Source: Escherichia coli (lineage in GTDB: Bacteria > Pseudomonadota > Gammaproteobacteria > Enterobacterales > Enterobacteriaceae). From it: a stretch of DNA of 64,000 nucleotides. The translations under genes were made by a program, and so were the position numbers. The notes below the pieces were generated by a model. It saw nothing but the letters and a program-made list of their open reading frames with translations. It was not told where the DNA came from and did not search any database. Below are positions 2,828 to 60,094 of this stretch, piece after piece. The stretch lies in assembly GCF_030384885.1 (NCBI RefSeq), contig NZ_CP128615.1. One strand, given 5' to 3'. How positions within the stretch are numbered: the stretch's first letter is position 1; every line of letters begins with the position of its first letter.

Positions 2828-5800
2828 TTGTTTTTATTATCTATTATGAAAGAATTAAAAAAGTTTAATAGATATGTCATGTGTTTCTTTTTGGGGGCTC
2901 GCTTAGCATACGCCGAAAGTATTGACGGTAGCAGTACCATTAATAATAGGGATATCTCCGGATCATTAAATATAGGGGTTTGGAAAGATGCAAGTGTTAA
3001 CATTAATGGCACTGTAAATATTAAACAATATTTTTCGGTAGCTACTTGTAATGGTCAATCAAGCACCTGCCCTACTGGTGGATTAAATGCATCAGCAAAT
3101 ATTAATAACTCTGCAAAGGTAGGTGCAAGTGTTACTATTGTTGGCGACTCTTCAAAGGGAATATTAGATATAGATGGTGGTAGCTCTCTATATACACAGC
3201 AATTATGGGTCTCTGGAAATGATAACGACAAAACCAGTAATTTCAGTGATGACAGTAATGGTTCATTGAAAATTAACAATGGAAGCAATGTTTTTGTCGT
3301 ATTATCTCAAGATAATACCCCATTTAAAGATAACCCGATAAAATGGGATCAAAAAATTATTTCACAAGGAAATAATATAACAGATGGGACGGTTTCCTCC
3401 GGGGATTTAGTCTTGGGTAAAACTGGCAATGGTATTATTGACATAGATAACAAATCAAGACTAGATGTAAAAAATGATGTGGTTGTATCTACGGGGGTCG
3501 ATGGCATTCCTAATGAAAAACCTTCGCTTATAAATATAAATAATGAAAGTGATTTCTTGATTCATGGAAACATGAAAGGAGGGATTTCTGCTGCAGGCAA
3601 GTTACAGTTAAATATGGATAGTAGTTCCAATCTGCGTGTTGATAACAATATTACTGTGGGGATTGGGAGTGGATCAGATATTTCTGTGAGTGCGGCTAAT
3701 GGAAGCTCTATATCTGCAACTGGTGATTTCACTGTAGCTACAGGAGATAATTCGAATGCTAATTTAAATTTAGATGCTTCAAACCTGACAGTGAATGGAG
3801 TTTCTACCATAGGAAGTGGAAATGGCTCCACAACTAAATTTGATATTCAGAATAGCTCTGTTGTAACAAGCGGCAGTGGTATGACTTTGGCTAAAGGTAA
3901 GGGTACACAGGCCAATATAAATATATCCTCTTCGAAGTTAAATACTGGTTCGCTATCAGTTGGTGAGGGAGAGGCTGCTAAAGTCACAATGACCGGAAAT
4001 GGAGCTACCGTTAGCACCGGTAATTCCTTCACTGTTGCAAAAGGTAATAATGCATCCGCGACGCTGGATTACACTGATTCGGAAATTGATATCGGTAGTG
4101 GTTATATCGGAGAGGGCGACGCTGCTGAGACCCAGCTGGAGCTGAATAATTCGAAACTGACTGCCAGTGATAAGGTATTTATCGGGCAGGGAGATACAAC
4201 CCAAACAAACCTGACATTAAATAATCATTCGTCAGTAAATGTGTCCGGTGAGATGTCAGTGGCCCGGGGAAGTTCTGCTTCGGTTGATGTGACTGTTACT
4301 AATGCAATGTTGTCTGCTGACTCTCTGTCTCTTGGTGGAGGAGAAGCTGCTAAAGTCACAATGACCGGAAATGGAGCTACCGTTAACAGCGGTAATTCCT
4401 TCACTGTTGCAAAAGGTAATAATGCATCCGCGACACTGGATTACACTGATTCGGAAATTGATATCGGTAGTGGTTATATCGGAGAGGGCGACGCTGCTGA
4501 GACCCAGCTGGAGCTGAATAATTCGAAACTGACTGCCAGTGATAAGGTATTTATCGGGCAGGGAGATACAACCCAAACAAACCTGACATTAAATAATCAT
4601 TCGTCAGTAAATGTGTCCGGTGAGATGTCAGTGGCCCGGGGAAGTTCTGCTTCGGTTGATGTGACTGTTACTAATGCAATGTTGTCTGCTGACTCTCTGT
4701 CTCTTGGTGGAGGAGAAGCTGCTAAAGTCACAATGACCGGAAATGGAGCTACCGTTAACAGCGGTAATTCCTTCACTGTTGCAAAAGGTAATAATGCATC
4801 CGCGACACTGAATTACACTGATTCGAAAATTGATATCGGTGGTGGTTATATCGGAGAGGGCGACGCTGCTGAGACTCAGCTGGAGCTGAATAATTCGGAA
4901 CTGACTGCCAGTGGTAAGGTGTTTATTGGGCAGGGAAATACAACCCAAACAAACCTGACATTAAATAATCATTCGTCAGTAAATGTGTCCGGTGAGATGT
5001 CAGTGGCCCAGGGAAATTCTGCTTCGGTTGATGTAACAGTCACTAATGCAGTGCTGTCTGCTGACTCTCTGTCTCTTGGTGGAGGAGAGGCTGCTAAAGT
5101 CACAATGACCGGAAACGGAGCAACGATTAGCAGCGGCAATACTTTCACGGTCGCAAAAGGTAATAACGCATCTGCAGCGCTGGACTACTCTGATTCAAAA
5201 ATTAATATCGGTAATGGATATATCGGTGTGGGCGAAAAATCTCATACATTACTAAAACTGGACAACTCAATTTTCCATGCCGCTGGGAATATTGATATAG
5301 GTAAAGGCAGCTCTACTATAGCTACTGTTTCTGTCGGGGCTGGTAGTAATATGTCAATAAAAGGGAATGCTAGTATTGGCGTTGGAGATCAGGCTAAAGC
5401 AAAGTTTTCAGTAAAAGATAGTGTGCTGAATATAGGTAGTAGTCTGGTTCTCGGACAGGGGAATAGTACCGAAGCAGAAATGTCTGTTGAGCATTCTCAG
5501 CTTTATAGTGGTAGCCTGTTGCTTGGGACGGCTAACAATGCTGTCGTTTCTATGGATGCTAATGATGCAGGGATATCTGTCGTGGGAGATTATATAGTAG
5601 CAAAAGGTGATGGTTCAGAAGCTACGTTGATTTATAAAAACTCAGATATTAATCTTGGGAATGGTATACTAGGTGCTGGTTCCGGAGTAAAAACAGATTT
5701 ATCATTGGATAACAGTAAATTTGTTGCATCTGATGGAATAATCATCGGTGAAGGTGATAATGCCATAACTAATCTTTCTATCTCTGATCACTCTGTGTTT

Positions 5801-7783
5801 AAAGGAGAACGTATAAATATTGGTAATGGTGCATATTCAAAAAATTCTATAAGTATAACCGGAAATTCCATATTTGATTTCGGATCATCTCAGGAATCAA
5901 CCATTGGTGAAGGTGATTACAGCCAGTCGTTAGTTACCATTAATGATGCATCAGTTTATGGTGATGGTTCATTAACTCTGGCAAAAGGTAATAATAGTTT
6001 TGCAGTACTGAATCTTCAGGATAATGCAGTGACTAATGCCAACAACATTTCACTTGCTACAGGACTGGGCAGTAAAGCAATCGTGAATGTTAGTAATATG
6101 AATTCCGGACAGTTCAATCCTGTATCTATGGGAGCAGGAGATGGTTATGCGGAAGTAAATTTTGATGGTGTTAATGGCTATACACTCTCAACTAATTTCA
6201 TTTGTATGGATTCCGGTTCATGTGCAGACACTGTCATAAATGTAAACAGAGGGACAGTTTCTCTGTCAGGAACAAATGACTGGAAAGGGCAGATAAATGT
6301 TTATGACGGAACCCGACTGGATGCAAGGGGGAATGATGCCGTTGATGGTATACTGAATGTCAGCAAAGAAGCACAGGTTGACTTTAACGGATACTCGCAG
6401 CATATGACAGGGATAGATAATAAAGGGATGATTTATCTTTCTGACGGAAGTGCTTCATCAGATGTGTATCTGGATAAAGATTATGTTGCACATGATGGTT
6501 CCGGTGTACAGTTCGGGATTTTCGGGCAGAAAGAGGCGGATGTGATGCATGTTAAAGGTGATACATCCGGGAGTTCAGGTATAGTTGTCACGACAAACAG
6601 TAAAAATAAAATAAAGAAAGGTGGCGACATTCTTCTTGTTGAGGTTAATGGGGACTCATCAGGTAGTTTTTACCTTAACTCACTGATTAAGAATGGTAAG
6701 GAGTATAAGGTGACAGGTGACTACATTGATGTGGGGGCCTGGGAGTATGCGCTGAACAAGAAAAGGAAGAATTGGTATCTGAGTGTGGATATGCGTCCTG
6801 AGCCAGGTGCGTTTATAAACAATAGTAAAAGTATGTTAGATATGTTTGCTCTACAACGGTATGACATACCCGGGCAACATCGTTATCCTACATTGTTTGA
6901 AAACTTATATAACAATGGGATGTGGATTCAATTTAACAACAACTCAGGTAGTAATAGTGAGGTGTATGATAATCTCAAGACCAGTTATAGTTTAAATACT
7001 ATGATGATTGGAGGGGATATATACAATTGGACTGATGGATATAACTATTCACATATCGGGATAATGGGCGGGATGGGGAGTGCCGCTAACAAAACAACGT
7101 CAACAAATAATAAAAGAGCTACCGGAAATGTAGACGGTTATACTCTTGGGCTTTATCATGTATTTCAACAAAATATCAGTGATGGACTAAATGAGTCAGA
7201 ACGTCAGGGGCTGTGGACTTATTCGTCTATACAATACATGGATTATGATAACAGCGTCAGTTCAACAAATAATTTCAAGGCTAATTATGGTGTAAATGGT
7301 TTTCGCCTGACAGGTGAGGTTGGTTATCTAAAAAATATAGGTGGCATACAACCAAGCGATTTCTACGTTGAACCTAAGTTATACCTTTCGCATACTGAGT
7401 TGTCTGGAGGTGTAGTTGAAGATCTTCAGGGAGGGAAAATAACTTATCCGAATTCGCTAACTATTATTGAACCAGGAGTATTTTTCTCTTATCGAAAAAC
7501 TCATGAATCGACTTCCAATGATGAAGCAATGTTTAAAGATTATATAAAACAATCTGTAGTCGATGCATGGTTTGGTGGGGGGTATTCATTTAAAACTGGA
7601 AATTATAGTCGTACTAACTTTGATTCAGATATGGTTGAATATAATACATCGGATAATTTCGCTCTTAAGAGTGGTGTTGAATTTGAATTTTTGAAGGATG
7701 CACGTCTTTTATTAACATCCTCATACTCAATAAATAATGATCGCAACTTGAGTTTTATTCTTGGTGGCAATTATTATTTTTAA
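2828..7783 (+). CDS. Autotransporter (type Va) adhesin-like protein with repetitive beta-helical passenger and C-terminal beta-barrel
   Basis: 1651-aa ORF; N-terminal signal-like segment ending LAYAES (start may be the Met at 2846); Gly/Asn/Ser/Thr-rich repeats; C-terminus ends in aromatic ...NYYF typical of autotransporter barrels; AT-rich. Confidence 0.8.
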   Translation: MFLLSIMKELKKFNRYVMCFFLGARLAYAESIDGSSTINNRDISGSLNIGVWKDASVNINGTVNIKQYFSVATCNGQSSTCPTGGLNASANINNSAKVGASVTIVGDSSKGILDIDGGSSLYTQQLWVSGNDNDKTSNFSDDSNGSLKINNGSNVFVVLSQDNTPFKDNPIKWDQKIISQGNNITDGTVSSGDLVLGKTGNGIIDIDNKSRLDVKNDVVVSTGVDGIPNEKPSLININNESDFLIHGNMKGGISAAGKLQLNMDSSSNLRVDNNITVGIGSGSDISVSAANGSSISATGDFTVATGDNSNANLNLDASNLTVNGVSTIGSGNGSTTKFDIQNSSVVTSGSGMTLAKGKGTQANINISSSKLNTGSLSVGEGEAAKVTMTGNGATVSTGNSFTVAKGNNASATLDYTDSEIDIGSGYIGEGDAAETQLELNNSKLTASDKVFIGQGDTTQTNLTLNNHSSVNVSGEMSVARGSSASVDVTVTNAMLSADSLSLGGGEAAKVTMTGNGATVNSGNSFTVAKGNNASATLDYTDSEIDIGSGYIGEGDAAETQLELNNSKLTASDKVFIGQGDTTQTNLTLNNHSSVNVSGEMSVARGSSASVDVTVTNAMLSADSLSLGGGEAAKVTMTGNGATVNSGNSFTVAKGNNASATLNYTDSKIDIGGGYIGEGDAAETQLELNNSELTASGKVFIGQGNTTQTNLTLNNHSSVNVSGEMSVAQGNSASVDVTVTNAVLSADSLSLGGGEAAKVTMTGNGATISSGNTFTVAKGNNASAALDYSDSKINIGNGYIGVGEKSHTLLKLDNSIFHAAGNIDIGKGSSTIATVSVGAGSNMSIKGNASIGVGDQAKAKFSVKDSVLNIGSSLVLGQGNSTEAEMSVEHSQLYSGSLLLGTANNAVVSMDANDAGISVVGDYIVAKGDGSEATLIYKNSDINLGNGILGAGSGVKTDLSLDNSKFVASDGIIIGEGDNAITNLSISDHSVFKGERINIGNGAYSKNSISITGNSIFDFGSSQESTIGEGDYSQSLVTINDASVYGDGSLTLAKGNNSFAVLNLQDNAVTNANNISLATGLGSKAIVNVSNMNSGQFNPVSMGAGDGYAEVNFDGVNGYTLSTNFICMDSGSCADTVINVNRGTVSLSGTNDWKGQINVYDGTRLDARGNDAVDGILNVSKEAQVDFNGYSQHMTGIDNKGMIYLSDGSASSDVYLDKDYVAHDGSGVQFGIFGQKEADVMHVKGDTSGSSGIVVTTNSKNKIKKGGDILLVEVNGDSSGSFYLNSLIKNGKEYKVTGDYIDVGAWEYALNKKRKNWYLSVDMRPEPGAFINNSKSMLDMFALQRYDIPGQHRYPTLFENLYNNGMWIQFNNNSGSNSEVYDNLKTSYSLNTMMIGGDIYNWTDGYNYSHIGIMGGMGSAANKTTSTNNKRATGNVDGYTLGLYHVFQQNISDGLNESERQGLWTYSSIQYMDYDNSVSSTNNFKANYGVNGFRLTGEVGYLKNIGGIQPSDFYVEPKLYLSHTELSGGVVEDLQGGKITYPNSLTIIEPGVFFSYRKTHESTSNDEAMFKDYIKQSVVDAWFGGGYSFKTGNYSRTNFDSDMVEYNTSDNFALKSGVEFEFLKDARLLLTSSYSINNDRNLSFILGGNYYF
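3952..5230. repeat. Tandem array of about 3.4 near-identical 372-bp (124-codon) coding repeats inside the autotransporter passenger
   Basis: Protein repeat LSVGEGEAAKVTMTGNGATV...NAMLSADS recurs; DNA copies at about 4256-4627 and 4628-4999 differ by only a few bases; antisense ORFs recur at 372-nt spacing. Confidence 0.9.
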
Positions 7784-17799: not shown

Positions 17800-17937
17800 A
17801 TCGTCACCAGTATATGCAGCGTCAGCTGCATGGAAGGCGGCACTTCGTTGTTGCATATGGCACAGGAGTAAAACCGCCGAAGCCCGGCGTAAGCCGGTAC
17901 GTATTGATAGGTTTCACCTATCCCATCCCTGCCCTGC
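17800..17937. repeat. Direct repeat copy A (structured, about 140 bp; candidate ssDNA promoter/ssi-like element)
   Basis: Shares long identical stretches (GGCATGGAAGGCGGCAC, GGAGTAAAACCGCCGAAGCCCGGCGTAAGCCGGTAC) with 20329-20469. Confidence 0.6.
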
Positions 17938-18282
17938 GAGGCCATGCGGGCTTTCAGCGATGATGAAGTATAGATAAGCCCTTTTAACCCCGTTAGCGCG
18001 GCGTAGCCGCGCTAACGGGGACTTAGTGCTGACAGCTTGCTGGCAGTACTTAGGGGCTGTATGTCAGAGTTTAAGTGATTTTTCTTGACGGAACACGGTA
18101 GCTGCTAAGCTATATCCGCTTTCAGCCATGAGAGAGCTTCTGTGCGCGGTCAGAGTGGTCCCGACGAGGGGTTACCCGCAGTCGGGGCGTATCTCCGCGT
18201 TAGCGGACCGTCAGGGCCGCTAACGCGCGTGTATGGGATCAGTTTGGATATTCGAAATTATTGTACGTTTAACGAACCACAC

Positions 18283-19732: not shown

Positions 19733-20014
19733 TTATGGCCACTTCTGTGCAGTATGCAATACACGCAGGATATACACTTTTCCCCACTGGCTATCGATCT
19801 CATAAACCAGAACAAAATGCGGGTAAATAACCAGTTCCCGGATACCTTCCACACGACCGTTGCGGCCTTTATACGGCTGTCCGGCCAGGCTGCTGGCTGA
19901 ATAACCAATCCGTTCGTCCAGTTCAATGGCGGCCATCAGGTTCTGCTCCGTAATGTATCCACGAATGCACTTCCTGTCCTGGCTGGCCAGTATGGTCCAG
20001 AATATCTCCATCAT
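19733..20014 (-). CDS. relE: RelE/ParE-family toxin (type II TA)
   Basis: 93-aa ORF; 4-bp overlap with the upstream antitoxin ORF; C-terminal ...VYILRVLHTAQKWP. Confidence 0.7.
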   Translation of the reverse strand: MMEIFWTILASQDRKCIRGYITEQNLMAAIELDERIGYSASSLAGQPYKGRNGRVEGIRELVIYPHFVLVYEIDSQWGKVYILRVLHTAQKWP

Positions 20015-20301
20015 TTACCGGCGACCTTCCTGCTCATTTCATCCCGCCATGCGGTCGCGGAGGATTCGACCATGTCATGTGGAAGCACATCACCGCGCCC
20101 GAGTTGCTGACGTCCTGCCTCAACCTGGTCACGGAACCAGGTATTATGCTGCCGTTCAACGGTCTGGCGCATAAAATCCCGGATTAACTGAGAGCCATTA
20201 CGGTCCATGCTTTTTGCAGCGGCCATAAAAGCATCCTTCAGTTCAGCGTCAATTCTTAAACTCATATTAACCTGTGTCATTTGCCATCTCGTCATTACCA
20301 C
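20011..20301 (-). CDS. relB: RHH antitoxin (RelB/DinJ/ParD-like)
   Basis: N-terminal MSLRIDAELKDAFMAAAKSMDRNGSQLIRDFM ribbon-helix-helix-like segment; true start may be the internal Met at about 20265. Confidence 0.65.
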   Translation of the reverse strand: MVMTRWQMTQVNMSLRIDAELKDAFMAAAKSMDRNGSQLIRDFMRQTVERQHNTWFRDQVEAGRQQLGRGDVLPHDMVESSATAWRDEMSRKVAGK

Positions 20302-20328: not shown

Positions 20329-20469
20329 ATATCGTCACCAGGATATGCCGCGTCAGCGGCATGGAAGGCGGCACGCTGTGGTTACATGTGATACTGGAGT
20401 AAAACCGCCGAAGCCCGGCGTAAGCCGGTACTGATTGATAGATTTCACCTTACCCATCCCCGGCCCTGC
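20329..20469. repeat. Direct repeat copy B (paired with 17800-17937)
   Basis: Same orientation and conserved core as copy A; sits between the antitoxin start and the TraC fragment stop. Confidence 0.6.
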
Positions 20470-20473
20470 TAAG

Positions 20474-21470
20474 CTACAGCTGGTTGTATTTCGCGAACTC
20501 CTTCGCACTCTGTTTGAGGATAATTTTGTAGGAGGAGTTACCCCATGCCGCGCGGGCAGCACTGGAAGCCTTGTCAGAGTCAAAGTCGACGATGTTCTGT
20601 GTGATGGTGATATAGGCACCGGTATGACGGCGGGCGGTACGGTAACCTTTCTCAATAAATTCACCGACCTTGTGATTTTTGAAGTCCAGCAGACGCCAGC
20701 CTTCATCAATGACGTTCAGTTTCTTGAGGTTACGCGGCGTGCGGTACATCCGGTTCTCAATGTAAATGATAAGGCTGAACATCACCGCAACCAGCAGGGA
20801 CGGACGGTCTTCCAGTCCGCCCAGCTCCAGCACCACCATTTTCGCATCATCCCGCAGGGACGGCTCATCGGAGTTGAAATACTGGCCATAAGTGCCGTTA
20901 GCAGTGTACTGGTCAAGCAGCACAATCATTTCGTCCAGACGGCTGCGGATGGTCGGTGACTCGGCATACTGCTCGCTGTCACTGGCGTTTTTCAGGAAAT
21001 CCACCACGTCATCAATACGTGCCCTGTTCTCTTTGGCCAGCCATGATGCCCTGACTGCCTGCAGCAGCAGACCTTCATGCACTTCATCCAGGTTACCGTT
21101 GGGGCTGGCCATCACCGACAGCTGGTCGCGGACACGCTCCGCTGACTGGTCAATATCGGTGATGTTCGCAAACGGGTTAAAGCGCAGGGTTTCACCGTCC
21201 AGATATACGCCCCCCATGTTCTCACACAGGGACTTGTAGCCATCCCCCATGTCGAACACCACGGCAAAGCCCCCGGAGTCCAGCACGCTGCGGATAAGTG
21301 GCTGTATCAGCCCGGTTTTACCGGCCCCGGAGGTGCCACAGACCGCCATGTTATAGTTGGTGTTATTCATCCCCCGGAAGAAAATATCGATAAACGCCAG
21401 CTGGTTACGGTAGGTGGGTGCCAGCAGACCTGCCGGTGTCAGGGGGTTATCCGCCACTACCCCAGATGTC
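20474..21470 (-). pseudogene. traC: Internal fragment of an F-type conjugative ATPase TraC (VirB4 family)
   Basis: Walker A-containing segment NMAVCGTSGAGKTGLIQPL and surrounding sequence recognised as TraC-like; both ends of the protein missing, no other tra genes in the window. Confidence 0.5.
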
Positions 21471-21884
21471 ACACCAGTCACCTCTTTTTGCGGTGAAATG
21501 CACAGTGATGATTTCCCTGACATCATCCGGTAATCCTTCCCAGCGACGCTGTCCAGTACCGCTCTGCAGCCAGAGTTTATGCAGCATCAGGCAGTTTTGC
21601 TCATCCAGCAGTACACCGTCCTGCAGGTATGTCAGCCAGCGGGTGAACGCGATATTCTCCGGCGATACAACGCCACGCCCGGCAGCCGTCAGTCCGGGGC
21701 ATGGTTCAAACCGCACATCTTCAGTGGTCTGCAGAAGTCCGGCACTTCCGGCCAGAAACAGCTGAATACCTTCATTTGTGGCGCGGCGATAAAGCGGTGT
21801 GACTGCACCGCTGGCCAGTCGTTTAATCTCAGCAATCTGTGCCGGTTCACCAGAAAAATGCATACGATTTGAGCACCAGTTTGG
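21447..21884 (-). CDS. Hypothetical protein
   Basis: ORF with GGAG RBS before the ATG at 21884 (MPNWCSNRMHF...); overlaps the TraC fragment by about 80 bp. Confidence 0.4.
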   Translation of the reverse strand, partial: PNWCSNRMHFSGEPAQIAEIKRLASGAVTPLYRRATNEGIQLFLAGSAGLLQTTEDVRFEPCPGLTAAGRGVVSPENIAFTRWLTYLQDGVLLDEQNCLMLHKLWLQSGTGQRRWEGLPDDVREIITVHFTAKRGDWCDIWGSGG

Positions 21885-22241
21885 CATGGGAATTCTCCTC
21901 TCACATGCGGCCTCTATCAGGCCGTGCCGCACCTGTAACCGGGCGACCGCATACGAATGCAGGTGCGGCCCCGAAGCCGCAGCGCGTGGAGGAGGAACGA
22001 CGAAACGTGACCGGGTGAGGAGGCCGGCGACAGCGACACACTTGCATCGGATGCAGCTCGGTTAACGTGCCGGCACGGCCTGGGTAACCAGGTATTTTAT
22101 TCACAGAACCGTGCGCAAAATGCTGTGGATAAGCTGGACACAGCAGTCCACAGCAGGCATACAGCCACACCCTCAGAGAATTGAGCGTTTTTTAGTCACA
22201 ATAATGACATTTGACTGTGTGTGGATTCAGTTATTAGAATA

Positions 22242-22257
22242 CTGTATATACATACAG
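22242..22257. promoter_or_regulatory. LexA (SOS) box upstream of impC
   Basis: CTGTATATACATACAG matches CTGT-N8-ACAG; TTGACT -35-like hexamer at 22211. Confidence 0.65.
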
Positions 22258-22280
22258 CAATAGAAAAGGGAGATGAGAAC

Positions 22281-22529
22281 ATGATCCGCATTGAAATTCT
22301 TTTCGACCGCCAGAGCACAAAAAACCTCAAATCAGGCACACTTCAGGCGCTACAGAATGAAATCGAACAACGTCTGAAACCACACTCCCCGGAAATCTGG
22401 CTGCGTATAGACCAGGGCAGCGCCCCGTCTGTATCTGTCACAGGAGCCCGCAACGACAAGGATAAAGAACGTATCATGTCTCTGCTGGAAGAAATCTGGC
22501 AGGACGACAGCTGGCTGCCTGCAGCATGA
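22281..22529 (+). CDS. impC: ImpC (DinI-like small SOS protein)
   Basis: 82-aa ORF from the ATG at 22281 with GGGAGA RBS; first gene of an imp/umu-type operon. Confidence 0.75.
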   Translation: MIRIEILFDRQSTKNLKSGTLQALQNEIEQRLKPHSPEIWLRIDQGSAPSVSVTGARNDKDKERIMSLLEEIWQDDSWLPAA

Positions 22530-22963
22530 GTACCGTTTATCACCGTCCGGCTGACCCTTCAGGCGATGACAGTTACGTGCGACCGTTGTTTGCCGATCGT
22601 TGCCAGGCCGGTTTTCCTTCGCCTGCCACTGATTATGCTGAGCAGGAACTGGATCTGAACAGCTATTGCATCAGCAGACCTGCAGCCACCTTCTTTCTGC
22701 GCGCCAGCGGTGAATCGATGAACCAGGCTGGCGTGCAGAATGGTGATCTGCTGGTAGTGGACAGGGCCGAGAAACCACAACACGGGGACATCGTTATCGC
22801 TGAGATCGACGGTGAGTTCACCGTCAAACGACTGCTGTTGCGCCCACGCCCGGCACTGGAGCCGGTTTCAGACAGCCCGGAATTTCGCACACTGTATCCG
22901 GAAAACATCTGTATTTTTGGTGTTGTCACTCACGTGATACACAGGACGCGGGAGTTACGCTGA
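22526..22963 (+). CDS. impA: ImpA/UmuD-like protein (LexA-type S24 peptidase)
   Basis: 145-aa ORF with Ser/Lys self-cleavage region (GESMNQAG...VKRL); 4-bp overlaps with both neighbours. Confidence 0.85.
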   Translation: MSTVYHRPADPSGDDSYVRPLFADRCQAGFPSPATDYAEQELDLNSYCISRPAATFFLRASGESMNQAGVQNGDLLVVDRAEKPQHGDIVIAEIDGEFTVKRLLLRPRPALEPVSDSPEFRTLYPENICIFGVVTHVIHRTRELR

Positions 22964-24233
22964 TGTTTGCACTGGCTGATATCAACAGTTTCTACGCCTC
23001 ATGTGAAAAAGTTTTCCGCCCGGACCTTCGCAACGAACCGGTCATCGTACTCAGCAATAACGATGGCTGTGTGATCGCGCGCAGCCGGAGGCAAAAGCCC
23101 TTGGCATCAGAATGGGGCAGCCCTGGTTTCAGGTGAGACAGATGCGCCTGGAGAAGAAAATACATGTATTTTCCAGCAATTATGCGCTGTACCACAGCAT
23201 GAGCCAACGGGTCATGGCTGTTCTGGAGTCGCTTTCTCCCGCAGTTGAGCCCTACTCAATTGATGAAATGTTCATTGATTTGCGGGGGATAAATCATTGC
23301 ATCTCTCCGGAGGTTTTTGGTCATCAGCTCAGGGAACAGGTAAAGAGCTGGACAGGACTCACCATGGGGGTGGGCATTGCGCCTACAAAAACGCTGGCTA
23401 AAAGTGCACAGTGGGCAACAAAGCAATGGCCACAGTTTTCCGGTGTGGTCGCGCTGGAGGCAGAAAACCGTAATCGGATCTTGAAGCTACTGGGGCTGCA
23501 GCCAGTTGGTGAGGTCTGGGGAGTAGGACGCAGACTGACGGAAAAGCTGAATGCGCTGGGTATTAACACAGCACTGCAGCTGGCGCAGGCTAACACGGCA
23601 TTCATCCGGAAAAACTTCAGCATCATTCTTGAGCGTACGGTACGCGAACTCAACGGCGAGTCCTGCATATCCCTGGAAGAAGCACCACCGGCAAAACAGC
23701 AGATTGTCTGTAGTCGCAGTTTTGGTGAACGAATCACAGACAAAGATGCCATGCACCAGGCTGTTGTTCAGTATGCAGAGCGGGCCGCAGAGAAACTACG
23801 TGGGGAGCGTCAGTATTGCCGGCAGGTGACGACATTTGTACGGACATCCCCCTTTGCAGTAAAAGAACCCTGTTACAGCAATGCCGCTGTGGAAAAGCTT
23901 CCATTACCCACACAGGACAGCCGGGACATTATTGCCGCAGCATGCAGAGCGTTAAACCATGTCTGGCGTGAAGGGTACCGCTATATGAAGGCAGGAGTCA
24001 TGCTGGCTGATTTCACACCATCGGGTATAGCGCAGCCGGGATTATTTGATGAGATCCAGCCCCGTAAAAACAGCGAAAAGTTAATGAAAACACTCGATGA
24101 ACTGAACCAGTCTGGAAAAGGGAAAGTGTGGTTTGCGGGGCGAGGAACCGCCCCTGAATGGCAAATGAAACGGGAAATGCTCTCGCCTTCGTATACAACA
24201 CAATGGACTGAGATCCCCATTGCTTCATTCTGA
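22963..24233 (+). pseudogene. impB: ImpB/UmuC-like Y-family polymerase, interrupted by a 1-nt frameshift near 23086
   Basis: N-terminal 57 codons (MFALADINSFYASCEKVFRPDL...NDGCVIARS) in one frame stop at 23136; the rest (MGQPWFQ...) continues in another frame from 23112. Confidence 0.8.
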
Positions 24234-24237
24234 TATA

Positions 24238-24666
24238 TCAGAATAATTTTTGCATTTTAAGGCGCACATCATTCATTGCCTCCTGCACCGAATCAGTAGC
24301 AGAAGGAGGCATTTTTTCAGCAGATTGCAAAGCACCGAGTTCAGTCAACACAGCTCTGATATCGGCCTGAGAAGGCTTCCATCCTGTCGTCTGACTGAGT
24401 AAGGTTACAACCTGATCTGCTGAAAACTCCTCGCTCAAAATGGCAGTCAGCAATACAGGCAGGCGAGGATCAAGTTGGTGTAACGCCATTCCAGAAATAA
24501 ATGCATTCCGGAACAGCTCACCACGCTCAGAACGCGGAACGGACTCTATCGCTTCCAAAGCTTGAAAGTCTGCAGCTTTTTCCGGATGCAGATAAAGTGT
24601 GAATTTTTTCCTTTTCCGTTCATCGTCCACAATATTACTCCTCTTTGAAAGCCGCGATAGCTTCAA
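24238..24666 (-). CDS. ParR/StbB-like partition adaptor (type II system)
   Basis: Small ORF directly downstream of the ParM-like gene; assignment by position and size. Confidence 0.5.
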   Translation of the reverse strand: MKLSRLSKRSNIVDDERKRKKFTLYLHPEKAADFQALEAIESVPRSERGELFRNAFISGMALHQLDPRLPVLLTAILSEEFSADQVVTLLSQTTGWKPSQADIRAVLTELGALQSAEKMPPSATDSVQEAMNDVRLKMQKLF

Positions 24667-25606
24667 CCAGTGCTGTCTGTGGCGACTCCATCATCACTAC
24701 TTTTTGCCCAAGATGGTGCCATGCCGTTTTTATCGAATCATAGATCAACGGGGCCCCACCACCGACAACATAAACACGATTCACATGATGAAAATCACCG
24801 AGCTCATTGACTACTTGCTCCCCCAGACTGGCAATAGCCCCCTCAATGGTATTAAGGACCAGATCAGTTTTTGTTTCGTCATTTATAACCTGCCGAACAA
24901 AGTCCGGGTCATTACGACGTTTAATCAATTCATCTGCAACGAGGAAACTGGTATCACTGGATGCCATGCGCAATGCACTCATTGCAGCTTTCGTAACTGA
25001 AGACACACCAATGCCAGAATTACCATGAATGGCACTTACAGAGTCAAATTGACCAACGATAACACCAACATCAAGCGTAGTGCCGCCAATATCAACTACC
25101 AGCGATTTTTCGAACTGACCAACTTTATCCATGACCAGACGAGAAAACACAGCTGGCAATGATTCAGGCATCACATCAACGTGTTCAATGGTGAAAACAT
25201 CGCCTTTATTAAGACGAATCGGCCTCATTAAATTCTCAATTTTACGCTGAATGTTGAGTTCATTTTTTTGACACTCTTTCGTGTAGAACTCACTGATAGG
25301 CAAAGTCACAGTCAATGATACAGGCTGAGGCGCTAATCCACTATTCAGTAAAGCGTGATGCACAGCTAACAGGTTAACATCCGTATATTGATACTCAATA
25401 TGAGTCGTAAGAATAGATTGGTTGCTAACTTCATCATACGTGTATTTTTTACCATCCAGTTCATAGTTAAATGTCTGGCGAATCCCTAACCCGTCAACCT
25501 TCCATCCATGACGAAATGAGTTTTGCGACAACGACTTACAGATTTTCCCATTGTCATTCCATGCCAACTTGATTGTTGTTGAACCATCATCGCAGTATAC
25601 GTTCAT
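24635..25606 (-). CDS. ParM/StbA-like actin-type partition ATPase
   Basis: 323-aa ORF with actin-fold phosphate motifs (CDDGSTTIKLAW, VVDIGGTTLDVGV, YVVGGGAPL). Confidence 0.8.
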   Translation of the reverse strand: MNVYCDDGSTTIKLAWNDNGKICKSLSQNSFRHGWKVDGLGIRQTFNYELDGKKYTYDEVSNQSILTTHIEYQYTDVNLLAVHHALLNSGLAPQPVSLTVTLPISEFYTKECQKNELNIQRKIENLMRPIRLNKGDVFTIEHVDVMPESLPAVFSRLVMDKVGQFEKSLVVDIGGTTLDVGVIVGQFDSVSAIHGNSGIGVSSVTKAAMSALRMASSDTSFLVADELIKRRNDPDFVRQVINDETKTDLVLNTIEGAIASLGEQVVNELGDFHHVNRVYVVGGGAPLIYDSIKTAWHHLGQKVVMMESPQTALVEAIAAFKEE

Positions 25607-25609
25607 CTA

Positions 25610-25830
25610 TAGCCCCTTAAATACTCAATCTGAGTAAATCACTGTTTCTGGTTGCAAGGTAATACTCAATTTGAGCACTATCATAGTTATGAAATCACAA
25701 AACACAAGTAATATTTATTACATCATATGACATACTTCATATTTCATACTTCATAAATATGAATGCATGTTGACACATCAGGTTACAGTGTCAAAATATC
25801 ATCATACTTCACACATCACATTTATGAGGT
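25610..25830. promoter_or_regulatory. Divergent intergenic region with direct repeats; candidate centromere/promoter for both partition operons
   Basis: Repeated CATACTTCAT / TACTCAATTTGAG motifs between divergently transcribed partition genes. Confidence 0.4.
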
Positions 25831-25834
25831 TGCA

Positions 25835-26479
25835 ATGATTACTGTAGTTGGTGGGAACAAAGGTGGTTCAGGGAAAACTACCATTGCATCAAACCTGGCT
25901 ATTGCTCTCGCAAATAAAGGAAGGGAAGTCTGCCTGTTAAACGGAGATCTACAACGAACAGCCGCAAAACATCATGCGGAACGAGAAGCTGCAGGACTGT
26001 TACCAGCAATAACCCTTGTTGAGAAATTTGATAACCTGACACAAACACTACAGGCTCTGAATGAAAAGTTCGATGATGTAATAGTGGATGTCGCAGGAAG
26101 AAACTCAAAGGAATTCATAACGAGTGGAGTTGTCGCACATCAAATAATTGCGCCACTACAGTGTTCTCAACCAGATCTGGATACTCTTACAGAACTAGAA
26201 CAACAGATAGACGCAATGCGTAACCTTAACCCGGAACTTAAGGTTTATTGTTTACAAAGTATGGCAACAACCAATCCGGTTTTGAGGGGAAATGAGAGAA
26301 AAGAATTCCTTGAATATCTTGAAGAATTCCCAACAATTCAAGTCCTGGATTCAGTTATTTGTTTCAGAAAAGTCTATCGCGATTGCATGAGCAACGGCAC
26401 CGGTGTAGTAGAAACGAACAATACAGCAGCCAGAGCAGAAATTGAACATTTAATGAATGAGGTATTTGGCCCATGGTGA
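25835..26479 (+). CDS. parA: ParA-family partition ATPase (small ParF-like, type Ib)
   Basis: Deviant Walker A VVGGNKGGSGKTT at the N-terminus; start taken at the ATG at 25835 after a GAGG RBS. Confidence 0.8.
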   Translation: MITVVGGNKGGSGKTTIASNLAIALANKGREVCLLNGDLQRTAAKHHAEREAAGLLPAITLVEKFDNLTQTLQALNEKFDDVIVDVAGRNSKEFITSGVVAHQIIAPLQCSQPDLDTLTELEQQIDAMRNLNPELKVYCLQSMATTNPVLRGNERKEFLEYLEEFPTIQVLDSVICFRKVYRDCMSNGTGVVETNNTAARAEIEHLMNEVFGPW

Positions 26480-26748
26480 AGAAACCCAGCCAGCAAGCAT
26501 TAAACAGAGCTGCAGTTACGGTAGAACAAGCAGAGGCTCTGGCTCAGCGCCTTGCGGATAAACCATACGGCGCGCCGGAAAAACTCGAACCAGAAAAACA
26601 ATGTCGGACGACAATCTCTCTTGGTGAAAGCATGCTTGTCACAATAGAAGATCTGGCATTGAGGAATAAACGCAATGGTAAAGATCCAAAAAATGTAAGT
26701 GCCATCGTCAGAGTAGCCCTTGAGCAATACTTAAAAACACTAACGTAA
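26473..26748 (+). CDS. Small ParG-like DNA-binding partner of ParA (likely RHH)
   Basis: 91-aa ORF overlapping the parA stop; C-terminal AIVRVALEQYLK. Confidence 0.5.
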   Translation: MVKKPSQQALNRAAVTVEQAEALAQRLADKPYGAPEKLEPEKQCRTTISLGESMLVTIEDLALRNKRNGKDPKNVSAIVRVALEQYLKTLT

Positions 26749-26885
26749 TAATCAAGAAGTTATTACTTATGAAATCACACTTGTGAATTCACACTGTTTA
26801 AGCACCCTTGCATACAAGAGATCACATATTGCAGTGGTCTCTTCTTTTATAGAATAAATCACAATTCATAATTATGATTTGTGAC

Positions 26886-27677
26886 TTATGCGTGTCTGTT
26901 TTTCAGCATTGTGACAGCATCGGACTCAGGCATCGAAAACTGCACCCGGTGCCGTGCAGCCACATCCAGCGCAAACACCTTCGTGTACACCTCTGTCGAA
27001 CTAATCGACTTGTGCCCCATCAGGCTCTGCAGCACCTTCAGCGGAATACCAGCATACAGCATATGCATCGCGTAGGAATGGCGGAAAGTATGTGGGGTAA
27101 CCGGAACAGAGAACGTCACGCCGTCGGCCGCAGCGGCCTCTACAGCTTCATTCAGCCAGGTGCGAACTGTGCGGTCGGTGATTCCCCAGATGCGCGCCTT
27201 CTCCATTCTTCCGGTTCGTTTGTTTCTGCGCTCCAGTGGGATTTTCAGCGTGGCCACCATCATCTGCAGTTGGCTGACGTATTGTGTATCGGACAGGGGA
27301 ACCAGGCGATGCACCTGACTGCCAGCAGGGACACGGCCTGCCGTTCTGGTCGCTTTTTCAGTCCGTTGTTTGAGCGTGGCCAGCTGTACGAACGGATATG
27401 GCGGCGCCAGAGAAAAATCTCCCCGCGTCAGCGCCAGCGCTTCGTTTATACGTGCGCCCGTGTTCCACAGGGTGGCCAGCAACATTTTGCGGTGCAGATC
27501 CGGTACATAGTGGAGCAGGGCGCTGATCTCCGGCGCCAACAGATATTTTGGTAATTCGTCCTGCACAAGTGCCATCTGACGTAGTGCCAGCGCAGCCGGG
27601 TAATCAATGGCAACAGGTAATGTTGCCGGAGGCGTTAAAAAAGAACCTGGCAGGGAAAGCAATTGTGGGCCACTCAT
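26886..27677 (-). CDS. Tyrosine site-specific recombinase (candidate multimer resolvase)
   Basis: 263-aa ORF with HTFRHSYAMH...LMGH...Y catalytic region; paralog of int at 1263-2003. Confidence 0.8.
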   Translation of the reverse strand: MSGPQLLSLPGSFLTPPATLPVAIDYPAALALRQMALVQDELPKYLLAPEISALLHYVPDLHRKMLLATLWNTGARINEALALTRGDFSLAPPYPFVQLATLKQRTEKATRTAGRVPAGSQVHRLVPLSDTQYVSQLQMMVATLKIPLERRNKRTGRMEKARIWGITDRTVRTWLNEAVEAAAADGVTFSVPVTPHTFRHSYAMHMLYAGIPLKVLQSLMGHKSISSTEVYTKVFALDVAARHRVQFSMPESDAVTMLKNRHA

Positions 27678-28105
27678 GATGTCCCCTTTATGAAATCCTC
27701 AATCTCTTGCTCGGTCTTTTTAGACTTCTTTACCATTTCGTACTCCTTTTGGAGTGTTTTACCTCTGGCTTTCAACAATACCAACCTCGTTGGCGATAGT
27801 GTATCGGAAAGGCCGTGCAGAGGGAGGCCACATAACATTCTCAGTTCTCGTGATAACCGCAGTGCTTTTACTCCCAACATAGCTGCGTTTTTATGCAAAC
27901 TATATTCACCCGCTCCACCATAAGGAGTATCTTCAACAAACACATTATCTACACACACGACAGCTTCGTAGCTGAGAACAGAGAGTTCGCTGAGCCTATA
28001 CATCAGGCCAGAAGGAAGGGAGCGCCAGTTACCAGATACCGGGGAATAATCGATTTCCGGTAATAAGAACTCAGCTTCTCCTCTGCCATCCTGATCGTGC
28101 TCCAC
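27674..28105 (-). pseudogene. Gene of unknown function, N-terminus truncated by IS26
   Basis: ORF reads across the IS26 left inverted repeat at 28106; 4-bp overlap with the recombinase start. Confidence 0.5.
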
Positions 28106-35546: not shown

Positions 35547-35608
35547 GGCTTTGTTGAATAAATCGAACTTTTGCTGAGTTGAAGGATCAGATCACGCATC
35601 CTCCCGAC
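35547..35608 (+). mobile_element. 62-bp IS903-group left-end remnant
   Basis: GGCTTTGTTGAATAAATCGAACTTTTGCTGAGTTGAAGGATCAGATCACGCATCCTCCCGAC identical to the left end of the full copy at 55903. Confidence 0.75.
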
Positions 35609-35708
35609 TGGATTTGCCCCTATATTTCCAGACACCTGTTATCACTTAATGGAGTGACCCCGAGCCCGTAGACAAATCTGCCCTATAGTTTGAGCATAGG
35701 AGGAGTCT

Positions 35709-35993
35709 ATGGGCACATCACGTTTTACCCCTGAATTTAAGGAAGAGGCCGTCCGCCAGATCACCGAGCGGGGCTATTCTATTGCTGAAGTATCTGAACG
35801 GCTCGGCGTGTCGGCGCACAGCCTATATAAATGGCTCCGGGCTGTTAAGCCTGACAACAGTGGACAGCAGGCACAGGATTTACTGGATGCCAGAACAGAA
35901 ATTCTCAGGCTGAAAGCACAGCTTAAACGCACTGAGGAAGAGCGGGATATTCTGAAAAAGGCAGCGCGGTACTTTGCAAGGGAGCCCGACTGA
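35709..35993 (+). CDS. IS3-family OrfA
   Basis: 94-aa HTH protein MGTSRFTPEFKEEAVRQITERGYSIAEVSERLGVS... Confidence 0.7.
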   Translation: MGTSRFTPEFKEEAVRQITERGYSIAEVSERLGVSAHSLYKWLRAVKPDNSGQQAQDLLDARTEILRLKAQLKRTEEERDILKKAARYFAREPD

Positions 35994-36040: not shown

Positions 36041-36566
36041 ATGTGTCGGGTCCTTAAGGTTGCCCGTGCCGGATTTTATGTCTGGCTCCATAACCCTGTA
36101 TCTGCCGGAGAAAAGGATAACCAGCGACTGCTGGAACTCATCCGCGACTCCTATACGCTGAGTGGTGGAGTTTACGGTTATCGCAGGGTTCATGGCGATC
36201 TTCGCGAAATTGGCGAAGTGTGCAGCAGAAACCGGGTTGCCAAAATCATGAGGAAAAACAGGATTCAGGCTATACATGGTTATAAAGTGCCACGCGGGAG
36301 CCGGGGACGACCGTCACTGATAGCGCCTAATCACGTGCGGCGTGAATTTACTGTAGTGAAGCCCAATCAGGTGTGGGTCACCGACATCACCTACATCCGC
36401 ACCTGGCAGGGCTGGCTGTACCTGGCAGTGGTTATCGATCTTTTTGCCCGTAATGTGGTGGGCTGGTCGATGAAGCCGACACTGTCGCGCGAGCTGGCAC
36501 TGGATGCGCTGCTGATGGCGGTCTGGCGACGTAAACCTGAAGAAAACGTCATTGTGCACAGCGATA
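36041..36566 (+). pseudogene. IS3-family OrfB, N-terminal part (interrupted after ...NVIVHSD)
   Basis: DDE core present up to HSD, then unrelated sequence. Confidence 0.6.
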
Positions 36567-37960
36567 GTAATAATGCCGATGTCAGTCTTTACCACCACTT
36601 AGTTTGCCGTTTAACCAGATTGGTGTGATTACTGATGCAGTGAAGACCTTCCCGCATCCTGACTCACACAGCGATCGACCTTTTGTGTCCTGCCCTGGAC
36701 CCGTCGGTTGCCGGAAGCGCCTTCATGCGAGGCATCTCCTCACCGATGCGCGTGACTCAAGAAGGGCCTGACGGCTTGTCTCGTTACTGTCCTGTCCGGG
36801 TTATCTGTCTGGAGATTCAACTCTGTTTCCTCACAGGAGCTCTGTCATGGTTGATAAAGTTACCGAAGCTGCCGTTGTGGGTGGCGTGGATACACATAAA
36901 GATTTGCACGTTGCCGCTGTCGTAGATCAGAACAATAAAGTCCTTGGGACTCAGTATTTCTCCACAACACGACAAGGTTACCGGCAGATGCTGGCATGGA
37001 TGACCTCGTTTGGGACATTAAAGCGAATTGGTGTTGAGTGCACAGGTACCTATGGTTCCGGTTTGCTTCGTTATTTTCAGAACGCCGGGTTAGAAGTTCT
37101 TGAGGTGACTGCTCCAGACCGGATGGAGCGACGCAAACGGGGTAAAAGTGACACAATTGATGCTGAATGTGCCGCTCATGCAGCATTCTCAGGCATCAGG
37201 ACAGTTACTCCCAAAACGCGTGATGGCATGATTGAGTCCCTGCGGGTATTAAAAACTTGCCGAAAAACAGCAATATCAGCCCGCAGAGTCGCTCTCCAGA
37301 TTATCCATTCAAATATTATCTCTGCCCCGGATGAATTACGTGAACAGCTCAGAAATATGACGCGCATGCAGCTCATCAGGACCCTGGGTTCCTGGAGACC
37401 TGATGCCAGTGAATACCGCAATGTAACCAACGTTTATCGCATTTCATTAAAGTCCCTTGCCCGACGCTATCTCGAGTTACATGACGAAATCGCTGATCTG
37501 GATGTCATGATTGCGGCAATTGTCGACGAGTTGGCACCTGAGCTGATTAAACGTAATGCTATCGGATACGAAAGCGCTTCACAGTTGCTGATCACTGCCG
37601 GAGACAATCCTCAACGGTTAAGATCAGAATCAGGATTTGCGGCACTGTGTGGTGTCAGCCCGGTCCCCGTTTCTTCTGGAAAAACGAACCGTTACCGACT
37701 TAATCGTGGTGGAGATCGTGCTGCAAATAGTGCACTTCACATCATCGCCATCGGACGCTTACGAACTGACGCAAAAACAAAGGAATATGTCGCCAGGCGT
37801 GTAGCCGAAGGACATACAAAAATGGAAGCGATACGCTGTCTAAAGCGATATATCTCCCGCGAAGTTTACACGTTACTGCGCAATCAAAACAGGCGGATCA
37901 ACAGTATCCCGATAACAGCTTGACTCTTAGAAGGGCGTCCAGGGCAGTCAGTATGGCAGT
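36567..37960 (+). mobile_element. IS110-family insertion sequence (boundaries approximate)
   Basis: Insert splitting the IS3-family orfB; carries an IS110-type transposase; no terminal inverted repeats, as expected for the family. Confidence 0.55.
36847..37923 (+). CDS. IS110-family transposase
   Basis: 358-aa ORF with N-terminal VGGVDTHKDLHVAAV motif. Confidence 0.8.
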   Translation: MVDKVTEAAVVGGVDTHKDLHVAAVVDQNNKVLGTQYFSTTRQGYRQMLAWMTSFGTLKRIGVECTGTYGSGLLRYFQNAGLEVLEVTAPDRMERRKRGKSDTIDAECAAHAAFSGIRTVTPKTRDGMIESLRVLKTCRKTAISARRVALQIIHSNIISAPDELREQLRNMTRMQLIRTLGSWRPDASEYRNVTNVYRISLKSLARRYLELHDEIADLDVMIAAIVDELAPELIKRNAIGYESASQLLITAGDNPQRLRSESGFAALCGVSPVPVSSGKTNRYRLNRGGDRAANSALHIIAIGRLRTDAKTKEYVARRVAEGHTKMEAIRCLKRYISREVYTLLRNQNRRINSIPITA

Positions 37961-40401: not shown

Positions 40402-40417
40402 GTTTCACCTCAGCGCC

Positions 40418-46758: not shown

Positions 46759-46773
46759 ATGATCTTGCGCCTC

Positions 46774-48537: not shown

Positions 48538-48553
48538 AGTTATCCGTTGCCTC

Positions 48554-52231: not shown

Positions 52232-52249
52232 TCGGGAGGCTCCCTGCTC

Positions 52250-52843
52250 TTAATTTTTTTTACCGTCTTCAGGCACAAGCTTGAAGGCGCGATAGTAGTT
52301 TTTAGATTCGATCATGCCGAAAGGATGCAAATCCCTTCCGCTATATTCACCCGGATAGAAAAGCACTAATGGCGTGCTACCCATAACGTCTTGCAGAGCA
52401 CTAAGTAACTCATGTCCTCGGATAAGAGGCCACGCACTGCCTAAGCCTGACAGCAACACAAACTCAAGTTCTGATGGCTTATATTTGTCCGCGATATACC
52501 TTGCCACTTTCTCTTGGCTCAGAGGCCCGGCTAGTGTTTTTCGAAGGCCATCAACACCGACTTGCAATTCACGCTGGCAAGCTCGGTCGAAAAGGCCTCG
52601 CTCCTCAAGCATATCTATCAAGACTTCAAAAATATTGAGATGGACAAAGCGGTAACCACGCTTGTTGAGTTTTTCGTCAACGTGCTTAATGTGCTCTCGT
52701 ACAAGCAGTTCATACTTGGCTGGATAGTCAAATACCCAAAATCCAATTTCATTGCCCAAGCCATCGTTTTTCAAAAACTTAGGGCTTTCAATTCGTTCCA
52801 GTATCAGATCAAGCCTGGTCTGAAGAGCCTTCATATTGTGCAC
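52250..52843 (-). CDS. brxB: BrxB (DUF1788)
   Basis: 197-aa ORF between brxA and brxC; assignment by size and synteny. Confidence 0.7.
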   Translation of the reverse strand: MHNMKALQTRLDLILERIESPKFLKNDGLGNEIGFWVFDYPAKYELLVREHIKHVDEKLNKRGYRFVHLNIFEVLIDMLEERGLFDRACQRELQVGVDGLRKTLAGPLSQEKVARYIADKYKPSELEFVLLSGLGSAWPLIRGHELLSALQDVMGSTPLVLFYPGEYSGRDLHPFGMIESKNYYRAFKLVPEDGKKN

Positions 52844-53430: not shown

Positions 53431-53439
53431 AAATTCATC

Positions 53440-56959: not shown

Positions 56960-57040
56960 AGATGGAATAGCCCCGCTCGGTGATTTGGCGGACAGCTTCT
57001 TCCTTAAATTCAGGGGTAAAACGTGGTGTGCCCATAGACT
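56960..57040 (-). mobile_element. About 80-bp fragment of an IS3-family orfA 5' region, inverted relative to 35703-35785
   Basis: Reverse complement closely matches AGTCTATGGGCACATCACGTTTTACCCCTGAATTTAAGGAAGAGGCCGTCCGCCAGATCACCGAGCGGGGCTATTC. Confidence 0.55.
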
Positions 57041-58758: not shown

Positions 58759-58789
58759 CCCGCATGGCATAGGCCTATCGTTTCCACGA

Positions 58790-59989: not shown

Positions 59990-60037
59990 GTCTGGCCTCC
60001 GGACCAGCCTCCGCTGGTCCGATTGAACGCGCGGATT

Positions 60038-60085
60038 CTTTATCACTGATAAGTTGGTGGACATATTATGTTTATCAGTGATAAA
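60038..60085. promoter_or_regulatory. tetO operators / divergent tetA-tetR promoters
   Basis: Palindromic TATCACTGATAA and TATCAGTGATAA between the divergent genes. Confidence 0.7.
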
Positions 60086-60094
60086 GTGTCAAGC

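Follow-up and report, generated by a model that had tools for sequence, protein, structure and literature searches.

The DNA analysed here, called the window throughout, is a stretch of 64,000 nucleotides (nt) from Escherichia coli (assembly GCF_030384885.1, contig NZ_CP128615.1) that opens at repB of the RepFIB replicon, the start of the plasmid record. Close to one third of the way along, it carries a piece of traC, a gene of the F-type transfer (tra) region. TraC of the F plasmid is a VirB4-family type IV secretion ATPase of conjugation. The piece is very probably a dead remnant, that is, a pseudogene, of an F-type traC, left by two deletions (D1 and D2) in which about 52 kilobases (kb) were lost and whose ends within traC lie on break hot spots. 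The locus contains the following features.

17800-18234, plus strand: repeat copy A, with both halves of the repeat unit and an insert of about 165 base pairs (bp) ending like the right end of an IS110-family insertion sequence (IS).
19733-20301, minus strand: yacB/yacA, a ParE-type toxin and its antitoxin; native left flank, which adjoins the RepFIC replicon in intact relatives.
20331-20476, plus strand: repeat copy B, the left half of a native repeat unit of about 290 bp, cut by D1.
20406-20420, minus strand: terminator-like hairpin (CGCCGGGCTTCGGCG then TTTT) inside copy B, just 3' of the stop of the traC fragment, from a consensus scan only.
20474-21526, minus strand: open reading frame (ORF) of 350 amino acids (aa), with 22-23 junk codons, TraC aa 447-773 and a TAG stop.
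20475-20476: junction J1, a TA common to the repeat-B flank (yacA side) and traC nt 2320-2321; left end of D1.
20475-21459, minus strand: internal F-type traC fragment, traC nt 1337-2321, TraC aa 447-773 of 876, by blastn and the PRK13721 profile.
20477-21095, minus strand: traC core, nt 1701-2319, common to all independently formed internal relics.
20696-20719, minus strand: Walker B region LNVIDEGW, ORF residues 270-277, with VIDEGW within it.
21314-21337, minus strand: Walker A motif GTSGAGKT, ORF residues 64-71.
21447-21932, minus strand: truncated DUF1281 gene, cut after codon 135 of 300, whose frame runs on through 8 nt of traC DNA to a stop; start codon at 21887 or 21863.
21458-21459: junction J2, a TA common to traC nt 1337-1338 and DUF1281-gene nt 405-406; end of D2.

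The DNA alignment confines traC homology to 985 bp (20475-21459), which show no difference from traC of the IncFIB/FIC plasmid NZ_CP055056.1 (100% identity), one difference from that of pRHB41-C14_2 (99.9%), and 96-100% nucleotide identity to the gene of the F plasmid. A preliminary description of this DNA had recognised in the ORF at 20474-21526, which carries a Walker A segment, the central to C-terminal part of TraC with both protein ends lacking. This identification is confirmed: ORF residues 24-350 correspond to TraC aa 447-773 of 876, the NCBIfam profile PRK13721 is matched (E=4e-212) only over its positions 445-771 of 874, and the alignment to TraC places the break points at gene nt 1337 and 2321. 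The segment NMAVCGTSGAGKTGL lies at ORF residues 59-73 (window 21308-21352), and the ATPase region is present with both its Walker A and Walker B motifs; Pfam P-loop_TraG also matches the ORF (E=1e-28), which aligns with the C-terminal ATPase domain of the solved VirB4 (4AG5) and TrwK (7O41) structures. Although the fragment thus derives from the same gene as F TraC, it lacks the N-terminal TraC_F_IV domain, the last 103 residues and the neighbouring tra genes, there being no further tra DNA in the 64 kb. The full-length architecture of about 875 aa (N-terminal TraC_F_IV, P-loop ATPase and C-terminal part) is accordingly absent, and the whole-protein scores fall under the cut-offs of both PRK13721 (706.5 bits against 1177, with 1758 for an intact homologue) and TIGR02746 (422.3 against 567, with 971 for an intact homologue). 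Judged by its sequence, the fragment is a pseudogene piece rather than a functional member of the TraC family. At its start, the ORF has 22-23 codons that come from DUF1281-gene DNA in another frame rather than from TraC, and its TAG stop (20474-20476), beside repeat copy B, is formed by the junction itself. We regard the ORF as a by-product of the two joins and infer that it has no function. An exact sequence look-up found no record of its product, and an Rfam scan gave nothing in or near the traC fragment.

The upstream end of the ORF was said to be overlapped by an unrelated ORF at 21447-21884. The overlap is real, but this reading frame has its ATG at 21887, or at 21863 by the annotation of relatives, and not at 21884, and it is the truncated DUF1281 gene at the D2 boundary, a 300-codon gene reduced to its 5' 406 nt (Pfam PF06924, E=4e-30). 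Intact 300-aa homologues are found in pRHB41-C14_2 (sequence L001 of our set) and in a further sequence, L005. The truncated product, of 146 aa, is present in a Logan contig (L007) and is the sole ORF product for which the look-up gave an exact match.

On either side of the fragment, the window is collinear with conjugative IncFIB/IncFIC plasmids, and we mapped it on one of them, NZ_CP055056.1 (117 kb). The window up to 20469/20476 corresponds to this plasmid up to 43957 (a 3'-5' exonuclease gene, yacB/yacA and the repeat, directly before RepFIC), window 20475-21459 to its positions 69897-70881 (traC), and the window from 21458 to its sequence from 97488 (DUF1281, impCAB, parMR and onward). 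In pRHB21-C20_2, to which the left flank shows 99.94% identity, the sequence runs on to repA(FIC), hok, finO, traX and traI through traC, and the right flank is 99.8% identical to pRHB41-C14_2. Collinearity with the conjugative relatives is broken only by the lost transfer block, whose boundaries carry truncated pseudogenes (traC at both ends, the DUF1281 gene at its 3' end). Two stretches are gone: D1, of about 25.9 kb, comprises the RepFIC replicon, finO, traX to trbI and the 3' 310 nt of traC, while D2, of about 26.6 kb, comprises the 5' 1336 nt of traC, traR to traM, the origin of transfer (oriT), the whole leading region, with an SLT gene, hok/sok, psiAB, ssb, ardA and a methylase among its genes, and the 3' 497 nt of the DUF1281 gene. 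The internal traC fragment, the collinear flanks and the two deletions uphold the proposal that this is a relic of a deleted tra region; to that proposal they add that the deletions are two and separate, that RepFIC and the leading region were lost with the transfer genes, and that both ends fall on recurrent break points.

According to the scheme that we favour, the parent would have been an IncFIB/IncFIC plasmid of the NZ_CP055056.1, pRHB41-C14_2 or pRHB21-C20_2 type. D1 would have joined the yacA-proximal repeat to traC nt 2321, with the loss of RepFIC, finO and the distal tra genes, and D2 would have joined traC nt 1337 to codon 135 of the DUF1281 gene, with the loss of the proximal tra genes, oriT and the entire leading region. 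The resulting plasmid would be maintained by RepFIB and, within the window, would be neither conjugative nor mobilisable. Both joins would be illegitimate, using a micro-homology of 2 bp (TA), with neither an IS nor a long repeat. The junctions read ...gctaagcTA/cagctgg at J1 and ...ccgccacTA/ccccaga at J2 (here and below a slash marks the join), and at each of them the parents share TA only and no extra bases are present. The junction alignment reveals no IS or IS end at J1 or J2, as an IS-mediated deletion would leave, and the parent has no homologous repeats at both end points of the deletions, as a homologous deletion would need, only 2 bp being shared. The order of the two deletions and their mechanism are our inference from these sequences. 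Since there are no substitutions in the 985 bp relative to an intact traC, the deletion event is recent.

No other transfer gene had been noticed in the window, and blastn with two complete tra-plus-leading regions indeed finds the traC fragment only. Relaxase, coupling-protein and pilus-assembly families are absent from the Pfam scans of 46 ORFs, among the 25 families listed of 66 matched, and from 10 ORFs scanned individually. The F nic motif (reference GCGTGGGGTGT/GGTGC) has only chance-level matches with three mismatches in the window. With oriT and the genes for relaxase, coupling protein and pilus all missing from this part of it, the plasmid should be unable to transfer itself, or to be mobilised, from this region, in agreement with what had been suspected of its self-transmission.

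The two break points in the window do not appear to be random, as they coincide with break hot spots of traC at nt 2319/2320 and nt 1337 (a third, at nt 1701, is used in other plasmids). With queries of 100 nt of intact traC against 5,426 complete E. coli genomes, the records with a partial match only were counted around these sites and around control positions.

traC nt 2319: 39 partial-only, 2831 records matched.
traC nt 1337: 18 partial-only, 2852 records matched.
traC nt 1701: 6 partial-only, 2854 records matched.
Control, traC nt ~1820: 1 partial-only, 2727 records matched.
Control, traC nt ~900: 0 partial-only, 2527 records matched.

For each hot-site query, the weakest of the matches listed ends exactly at the central TA. 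Plasmid pDC71-2 has a private traC-traN deletion that ends at the same traC nucleotide as J1, and a plasmid of E. coli B19 breaks at that nucleotide with the opposite side kept (traC nt 2320-2454, with a TA join to the middle of a group II intron). Plasmid pSECR25-9519-1 keeps traC nt 1337-2323 between a truncated traI and the leading region, in an allele that differs at 38/619 positions, and its two junctions share their traC nucleotides with J1 and J2. Four contigs found via chimeric TraC proteins keep nt 1346-2320, 1701-2323, 1698-2326 and 1254-2327, their partners lying in trbB, finO, traD (twice), traE, a methylase gene and elsewhere. Plasmid p67_83 keeps nt 1701-2631 with a TA join to traB; among the mapped plasmids, breaks at nt 1701 are seen only here and in the chimeric-TraC contig group. 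At least six unrelated plasmids, with differing traC alleles and partners, keep an internal traC core that ends at nt 2319-2327. The alleles of the six internal relics are all different (17-41 differences per 619 nt), and the relics therefore arose in independent events. The TraC frame is open in all six, the protein search being one that detects open frames only.

Across 55 TraC-like proteins aligned to TraC, the C-side junctions of chimeras fall at aa 773-776 in about 14 of about 18 cases (11 proteins plus the window, pDC71-2 and pSECR25-9519-1), and the N-side junctions fall at aa 568 (nt 1701) in about 9 of about 22, with four at aa 447-450. Read in traC sense, 7/7 downstream junctions retain ...AACCAGCTG, and the overlap with the partner starts right after it, being T, TA, TA, TATC, GTATC, TATCCGG and TATCCGGA. 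The upstream junctions are TA/GTGGCGG (twice), TA/ACCTGGATG (three times including p67_83, with an overlap of TA or CGTTA), ATA/ACCCC and CGTGAA/AGGG. The boundary is therefore fixed on the core side and variable on that of the partner, with a micro-homology of 1-8 nt anchored at the fixed side; the upstream boundary varies from relic to relic (nt 1254, 1337, 1346 or 1698-1701), whereas the downstream one is fixed. We found no description of traC break hot spots in the literature searched. A separate observation concerns three TraB-TraC fusions (P0006, P0011 and P0013), which have the same TraB end, ...PNRIQRKVF, and three different traC partners, suggesting a further recurrent break point in traB.

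These regularities might reflect a small number of nucleotide-precise break sites in traC, from which deletions run outward in one direction only, which would imply site-specific nicking or cleavage on tra DNA. We advance this idea tentatively, as its odds seem to us somewhat less than even. The sites proposed, with the same reserve, lie after ...CCAGCTG (nt 2319), before GTGGCGG (nt 1337) and before ACCTGGATG (nt 1701), nearly all of them at TA. After a fixed nick or break at one of these sites, one strand would be lost in the direction away from the core, and the ends would then be re-ligated with micro-homology on the intact strand as the splint; the strand lost could be either the sense strand, in the 5'->3' direction, or the antisense strand, in the 3'->5' direction. 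A fixed core side, a variable partner and an anchored micro-homology are what such a nick-and-splint process would be expected to give.

Several candidates for the cause were considered and set aside, and we can point only hesitantly to any specific molecular mechanism behind the hot spots. An IS at the hot sites would give records with two half-matches, of which there are none, and the extra matching places (19-24) are alike for hot and control queries. Group II intron homing uses the target ...GAAGGTGCGC/CCGGCAG, unlike the traC sites, and in B19 the intron is a passive deletion partner. The IS110-family element has the core CT and not TA, and its repeat target is 9 nt from J1. A Chi-like GCTGGTTG beside the site at nt 2319 matches at 7/8 positions and, reasoning from the sequence, faces the wrong way for the retained side. 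By reasoning only, Tus/Ter, Dcm/Vsr, TA-overhang restriction sites and the gyrase consensus give no consistent fit. As for a TraI pseudo-nic, the hot sites resemble the nic sequence only weakly, and local folding offers a 5-bp stem (ATACA/TGTAT) around nt 2319 but no strong structure. An origin through RNA ligation and complementary DNA (UA cleavage, then reverse transcription) would suit the TA signature, but not the overlaps of 4-8 nt. CRISPR spacers show no excess, with 32, 35 and 35 chromosomal matches at hot sites against 33 and 30 at controls, and one hot-site scan of GTDB representative genomes returned intact traC only and no spacer.

The group II introns and the IS110-family element were also seen elsewhere in these plasmids. 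Two identical introns of 2,342 bp (GTGCG...) are present in pRHB41-C14_2 (L001 21248-23589 and 29016-31357), both at ...GAAGGTGCGC/CCGGCAG in leading-region repeats of about 600 bp and antisense to the leading-region genes, which indicates site-specific homing into these repeats. The same plasmid has an IS110-family element (L001 19302-20677) with the right end ...CTTGACTAAACACGGTAG/CT and the core dinucleotide CT, and the insert of about 165 bp in repeat copy A (window 17964-18101) has a closely similar end, ...CTTGACGGAACACGGTAG/CT. The repeat unit looks like a target of this IS110 family, of which copy A would hold a remnant.

A number of points weigh against parts of the interpretation given above. 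The TraC frame of the 350-aa ORF is open, with both Walker motifs, and a Shine-Dalgarno-like GGAAGGA lies 7 nt ahead of its ATG, so that expression is possible. That unrelated plasmids have repeatedly kept the same core could be a sign of selection, which would contradict the absence of function. As for the junctions, no record in PLSDB or among the complete E. coli genomes covers at least 80% of the junction queries, the exact junction 32-mers are absent from GTDB representative genomes and JGI metagenomes, and the sole independent support comes from one Logan sample, possibly of the same isolate; metagenomes also gave no match to a degenerate pattern with any non-native base before TACAGCTGG.... 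The lack of transfer functions holds for the 64-kb window, which is part of the replicon. Finally, the nick-and-splint process and its enzyme are hypothetical.

The alternative that survives best is that the core is retained for a function, either as a truncated VirB4-type ATPase that poisons incoming F-like transfer or blocks male-specific phages, or as a cis element needed in nt 1701-2319, its loss being counter-selected. It could draw on the at least six independent plasmids that, with different alleles, keep an internal segment always including nt 1701-2319, on the TraC frame open in each of these relics, and on the 350-aa ORF having an ATG of its own with a Shine-Dalgarno-like sequence. 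An open frame is, however, expected of recent deletions, and selection for the core does not account for break points precise to the nucleotide. Moreover, the B19 plasmid, although broken at the same nucleotide, has kept the opposite side and lost the core, pDC71-2 and p67_83 use one hot site only, the products of the core relics are diverse (fusions to TraE, TraB, a methylase, FinO, or junk), and tra is wholly absent from many F-like plasmids (PMC11229322). We therefore consider a selected function improbable, and less likely than site-specific cleavage.

Slightly more improbable is a single big deletion, from repeat B to DUF1281, followed by insertion of a 983-bp traC piece at TA, either as filler DNA or as a transposed unit. 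The TA on either side of the fragment could be taken for a target-site duplication, and a unit of nt 1337-2319/2323 recurs in pSECR25-9519-1 between different flanks. Yet every relic is in its native orientation and in native order between its flanks, the window fragment matches, at 100% identity, the traC allele found in the plasmid lineage of the right flank, its ends are not inverted repeats, and no copy was found outside a tra context; a unit would also not be expected to have a variable upstream boundary and a fixed downstream one.

Two deletions that end within traC are likewise to be preferred to recombination between the direct repeats, copies A and B, which had been thought to mark a deletion or recombination junction and which we now hold to be most unlikely as its source. 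Copy B does adjoin the traC fragment, as had been described with its limits at 20329-20469; its coordinates are rather 20331-20465, with homology to the intact flank on to 20476, and the second copy lies 2.5 kb away with 86% identity. However, the unit of about 290 bp belongs natively to the interval from yacA to the RepFIC origin in intact relatives, where it extends beyond the break, so that D1 cuts inside a longer repeat, in the middle of the unit. As traC and the repeat share no homology other than TA, and copy A keeps the sequence past the break, the junction alignment refutes mediation of the D1 join by the repeat. Recombination of A with B would, besides, have removed the exonuclease-yacAB segment (17.9-20.3 kb) and not tra, and the presence of this segment argues against it.

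A chimeric contig join, to which the absence of the junctions from PLSDB and RefSeq E. coli records might point, is hardly tenable, since the independent short-read contig L007 (SRR34489103) is 100% identical to window 20402-27887 over 7,486 bp, spans both junctions and ends only inside the repeat, where a short-read assembly graph must break, and since similar junctions at the same nucleotides exist in several finished plasmids.

F-like plasmids are known to become non-mobile through segmental tra deletion that leaves boundary pseudogenes (Hanke et al. 2024, PMC11229322; Coluzzi et al. 2022, PMC9185392). The present case resembles this route in the conserved gene order apart from a consecutive transfer block, in the truncated traC and DUF1281 genes, and in the maintenance of the plasmid by another replicon. 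It differs in having two deletions around a kept internal piece, together with the loss of one IncF replicon and the whole leading region, and a nucleotide-exact agreement of break points between unrelated plasmids is not described in PMC11229322 or PMC9185392. By itself, the feature is ordinary plasmid decay; what distinguishes it is that its ends lie on hot spots common to unrelated plasmids.

Two other processes offer partial parallels. Adjacent deletions mediated by IS elements have one end fixed at the element end and the other variable, which recalls the outward-facing fixed ends of the traC core and their variable distal partners, but no IS or transposon end is found at any traC junction, and micro-homology of 1-8 nt is used instead. 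Type I CRISPR-Cas3 produces long one-directional deletions, through which a target can escape, that are normally not nucleotide-precise; the fixed start near a target, the one-way strand loss over kilobases and the micro-homology joins are shared features, whereas no spacer was found and the traC hot spots are precise to the nucleotide.

For a multi-replicon IncF plasmid with BREX, tet(A) and virulence-type cargo, the relic points to a loss of mobility along with that of one replicon, which bears on how the plasmid can spread. Conjugative plasmids decay to non-mobile ones through deletions that are assumed to be haphazard or IS-driven. Should the breaks in tra operons occur at defined nucleotides instead, there would be an enzyme or a structure to find, whose nicking activity could come from the plasmid, the host, a defence system or a mobile element. 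Independent plasmids would then repeatedly decay to the same core relic of 0.6-1.0 kb, by an undescribed, semi-programmed route of transfer loss in conjugative plasmids. Such a route would provide a sequence signature with which to date and count transfer-loss events in surveillance data, and might allow transfer loss to be provoked deliberately.

In the remainder of the window, Pfam scans of the ORFs identify plasmid maintenance genes, IS elements, BREX (bacteriophage exclusion), tet(A) and an autotransporter. Beyond the DUF1281 gene, the impB/umuC-like Y-family polymerase gene of the impCAB operon (22963-24233, plus strand) has a 1-bp deletion in a run of C near 23084 (CAGCCCGGAG -> CAGCCGGAG), which splits it into ORFs of 57 and 373 aa; the frameshift is also present in L007 and is therefore not a private error of this assembly.

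A complete-looking type 1 BREX system occupies 38326-54366 (minus strand), with brxL, pglZ, pglX, brxC, brxB, brxA and a WYL regulator; a DUF262/GmrSD gene has been inserted after pglX and before brxC. The elements on its flanks are IS1, IS903 and, at 36041-37923, an IS3-like element that carries an inserted IS110-family element. BREX is bracketed by two pairs of repeats with copies some 20-21 kb apart, a 62-bp direct repeat with identical copies (35547-35608 and 55903-55964; IS903-type end, GGCTTTGTTGAATAAATCG...) and a 79-bp inverted repeat (35704-35782 and 56962-57040), which suggest a composite-transposon-like arrangement.

The sole Rfam match in the window is an IS1222 ribosomal frameshift element (57343-57460, plus strand, 152 bits), upstream of a block with EamA, tet(A), tetR and a TnAs1-like tnpA (57874-63887). 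Near the other end, a 1,651-aa autotransporter ORF (2828-7783) contains a 372-bp unit four times in tandem (3945-5360), the further copies being 96%, 93% and 64% identical to the first.

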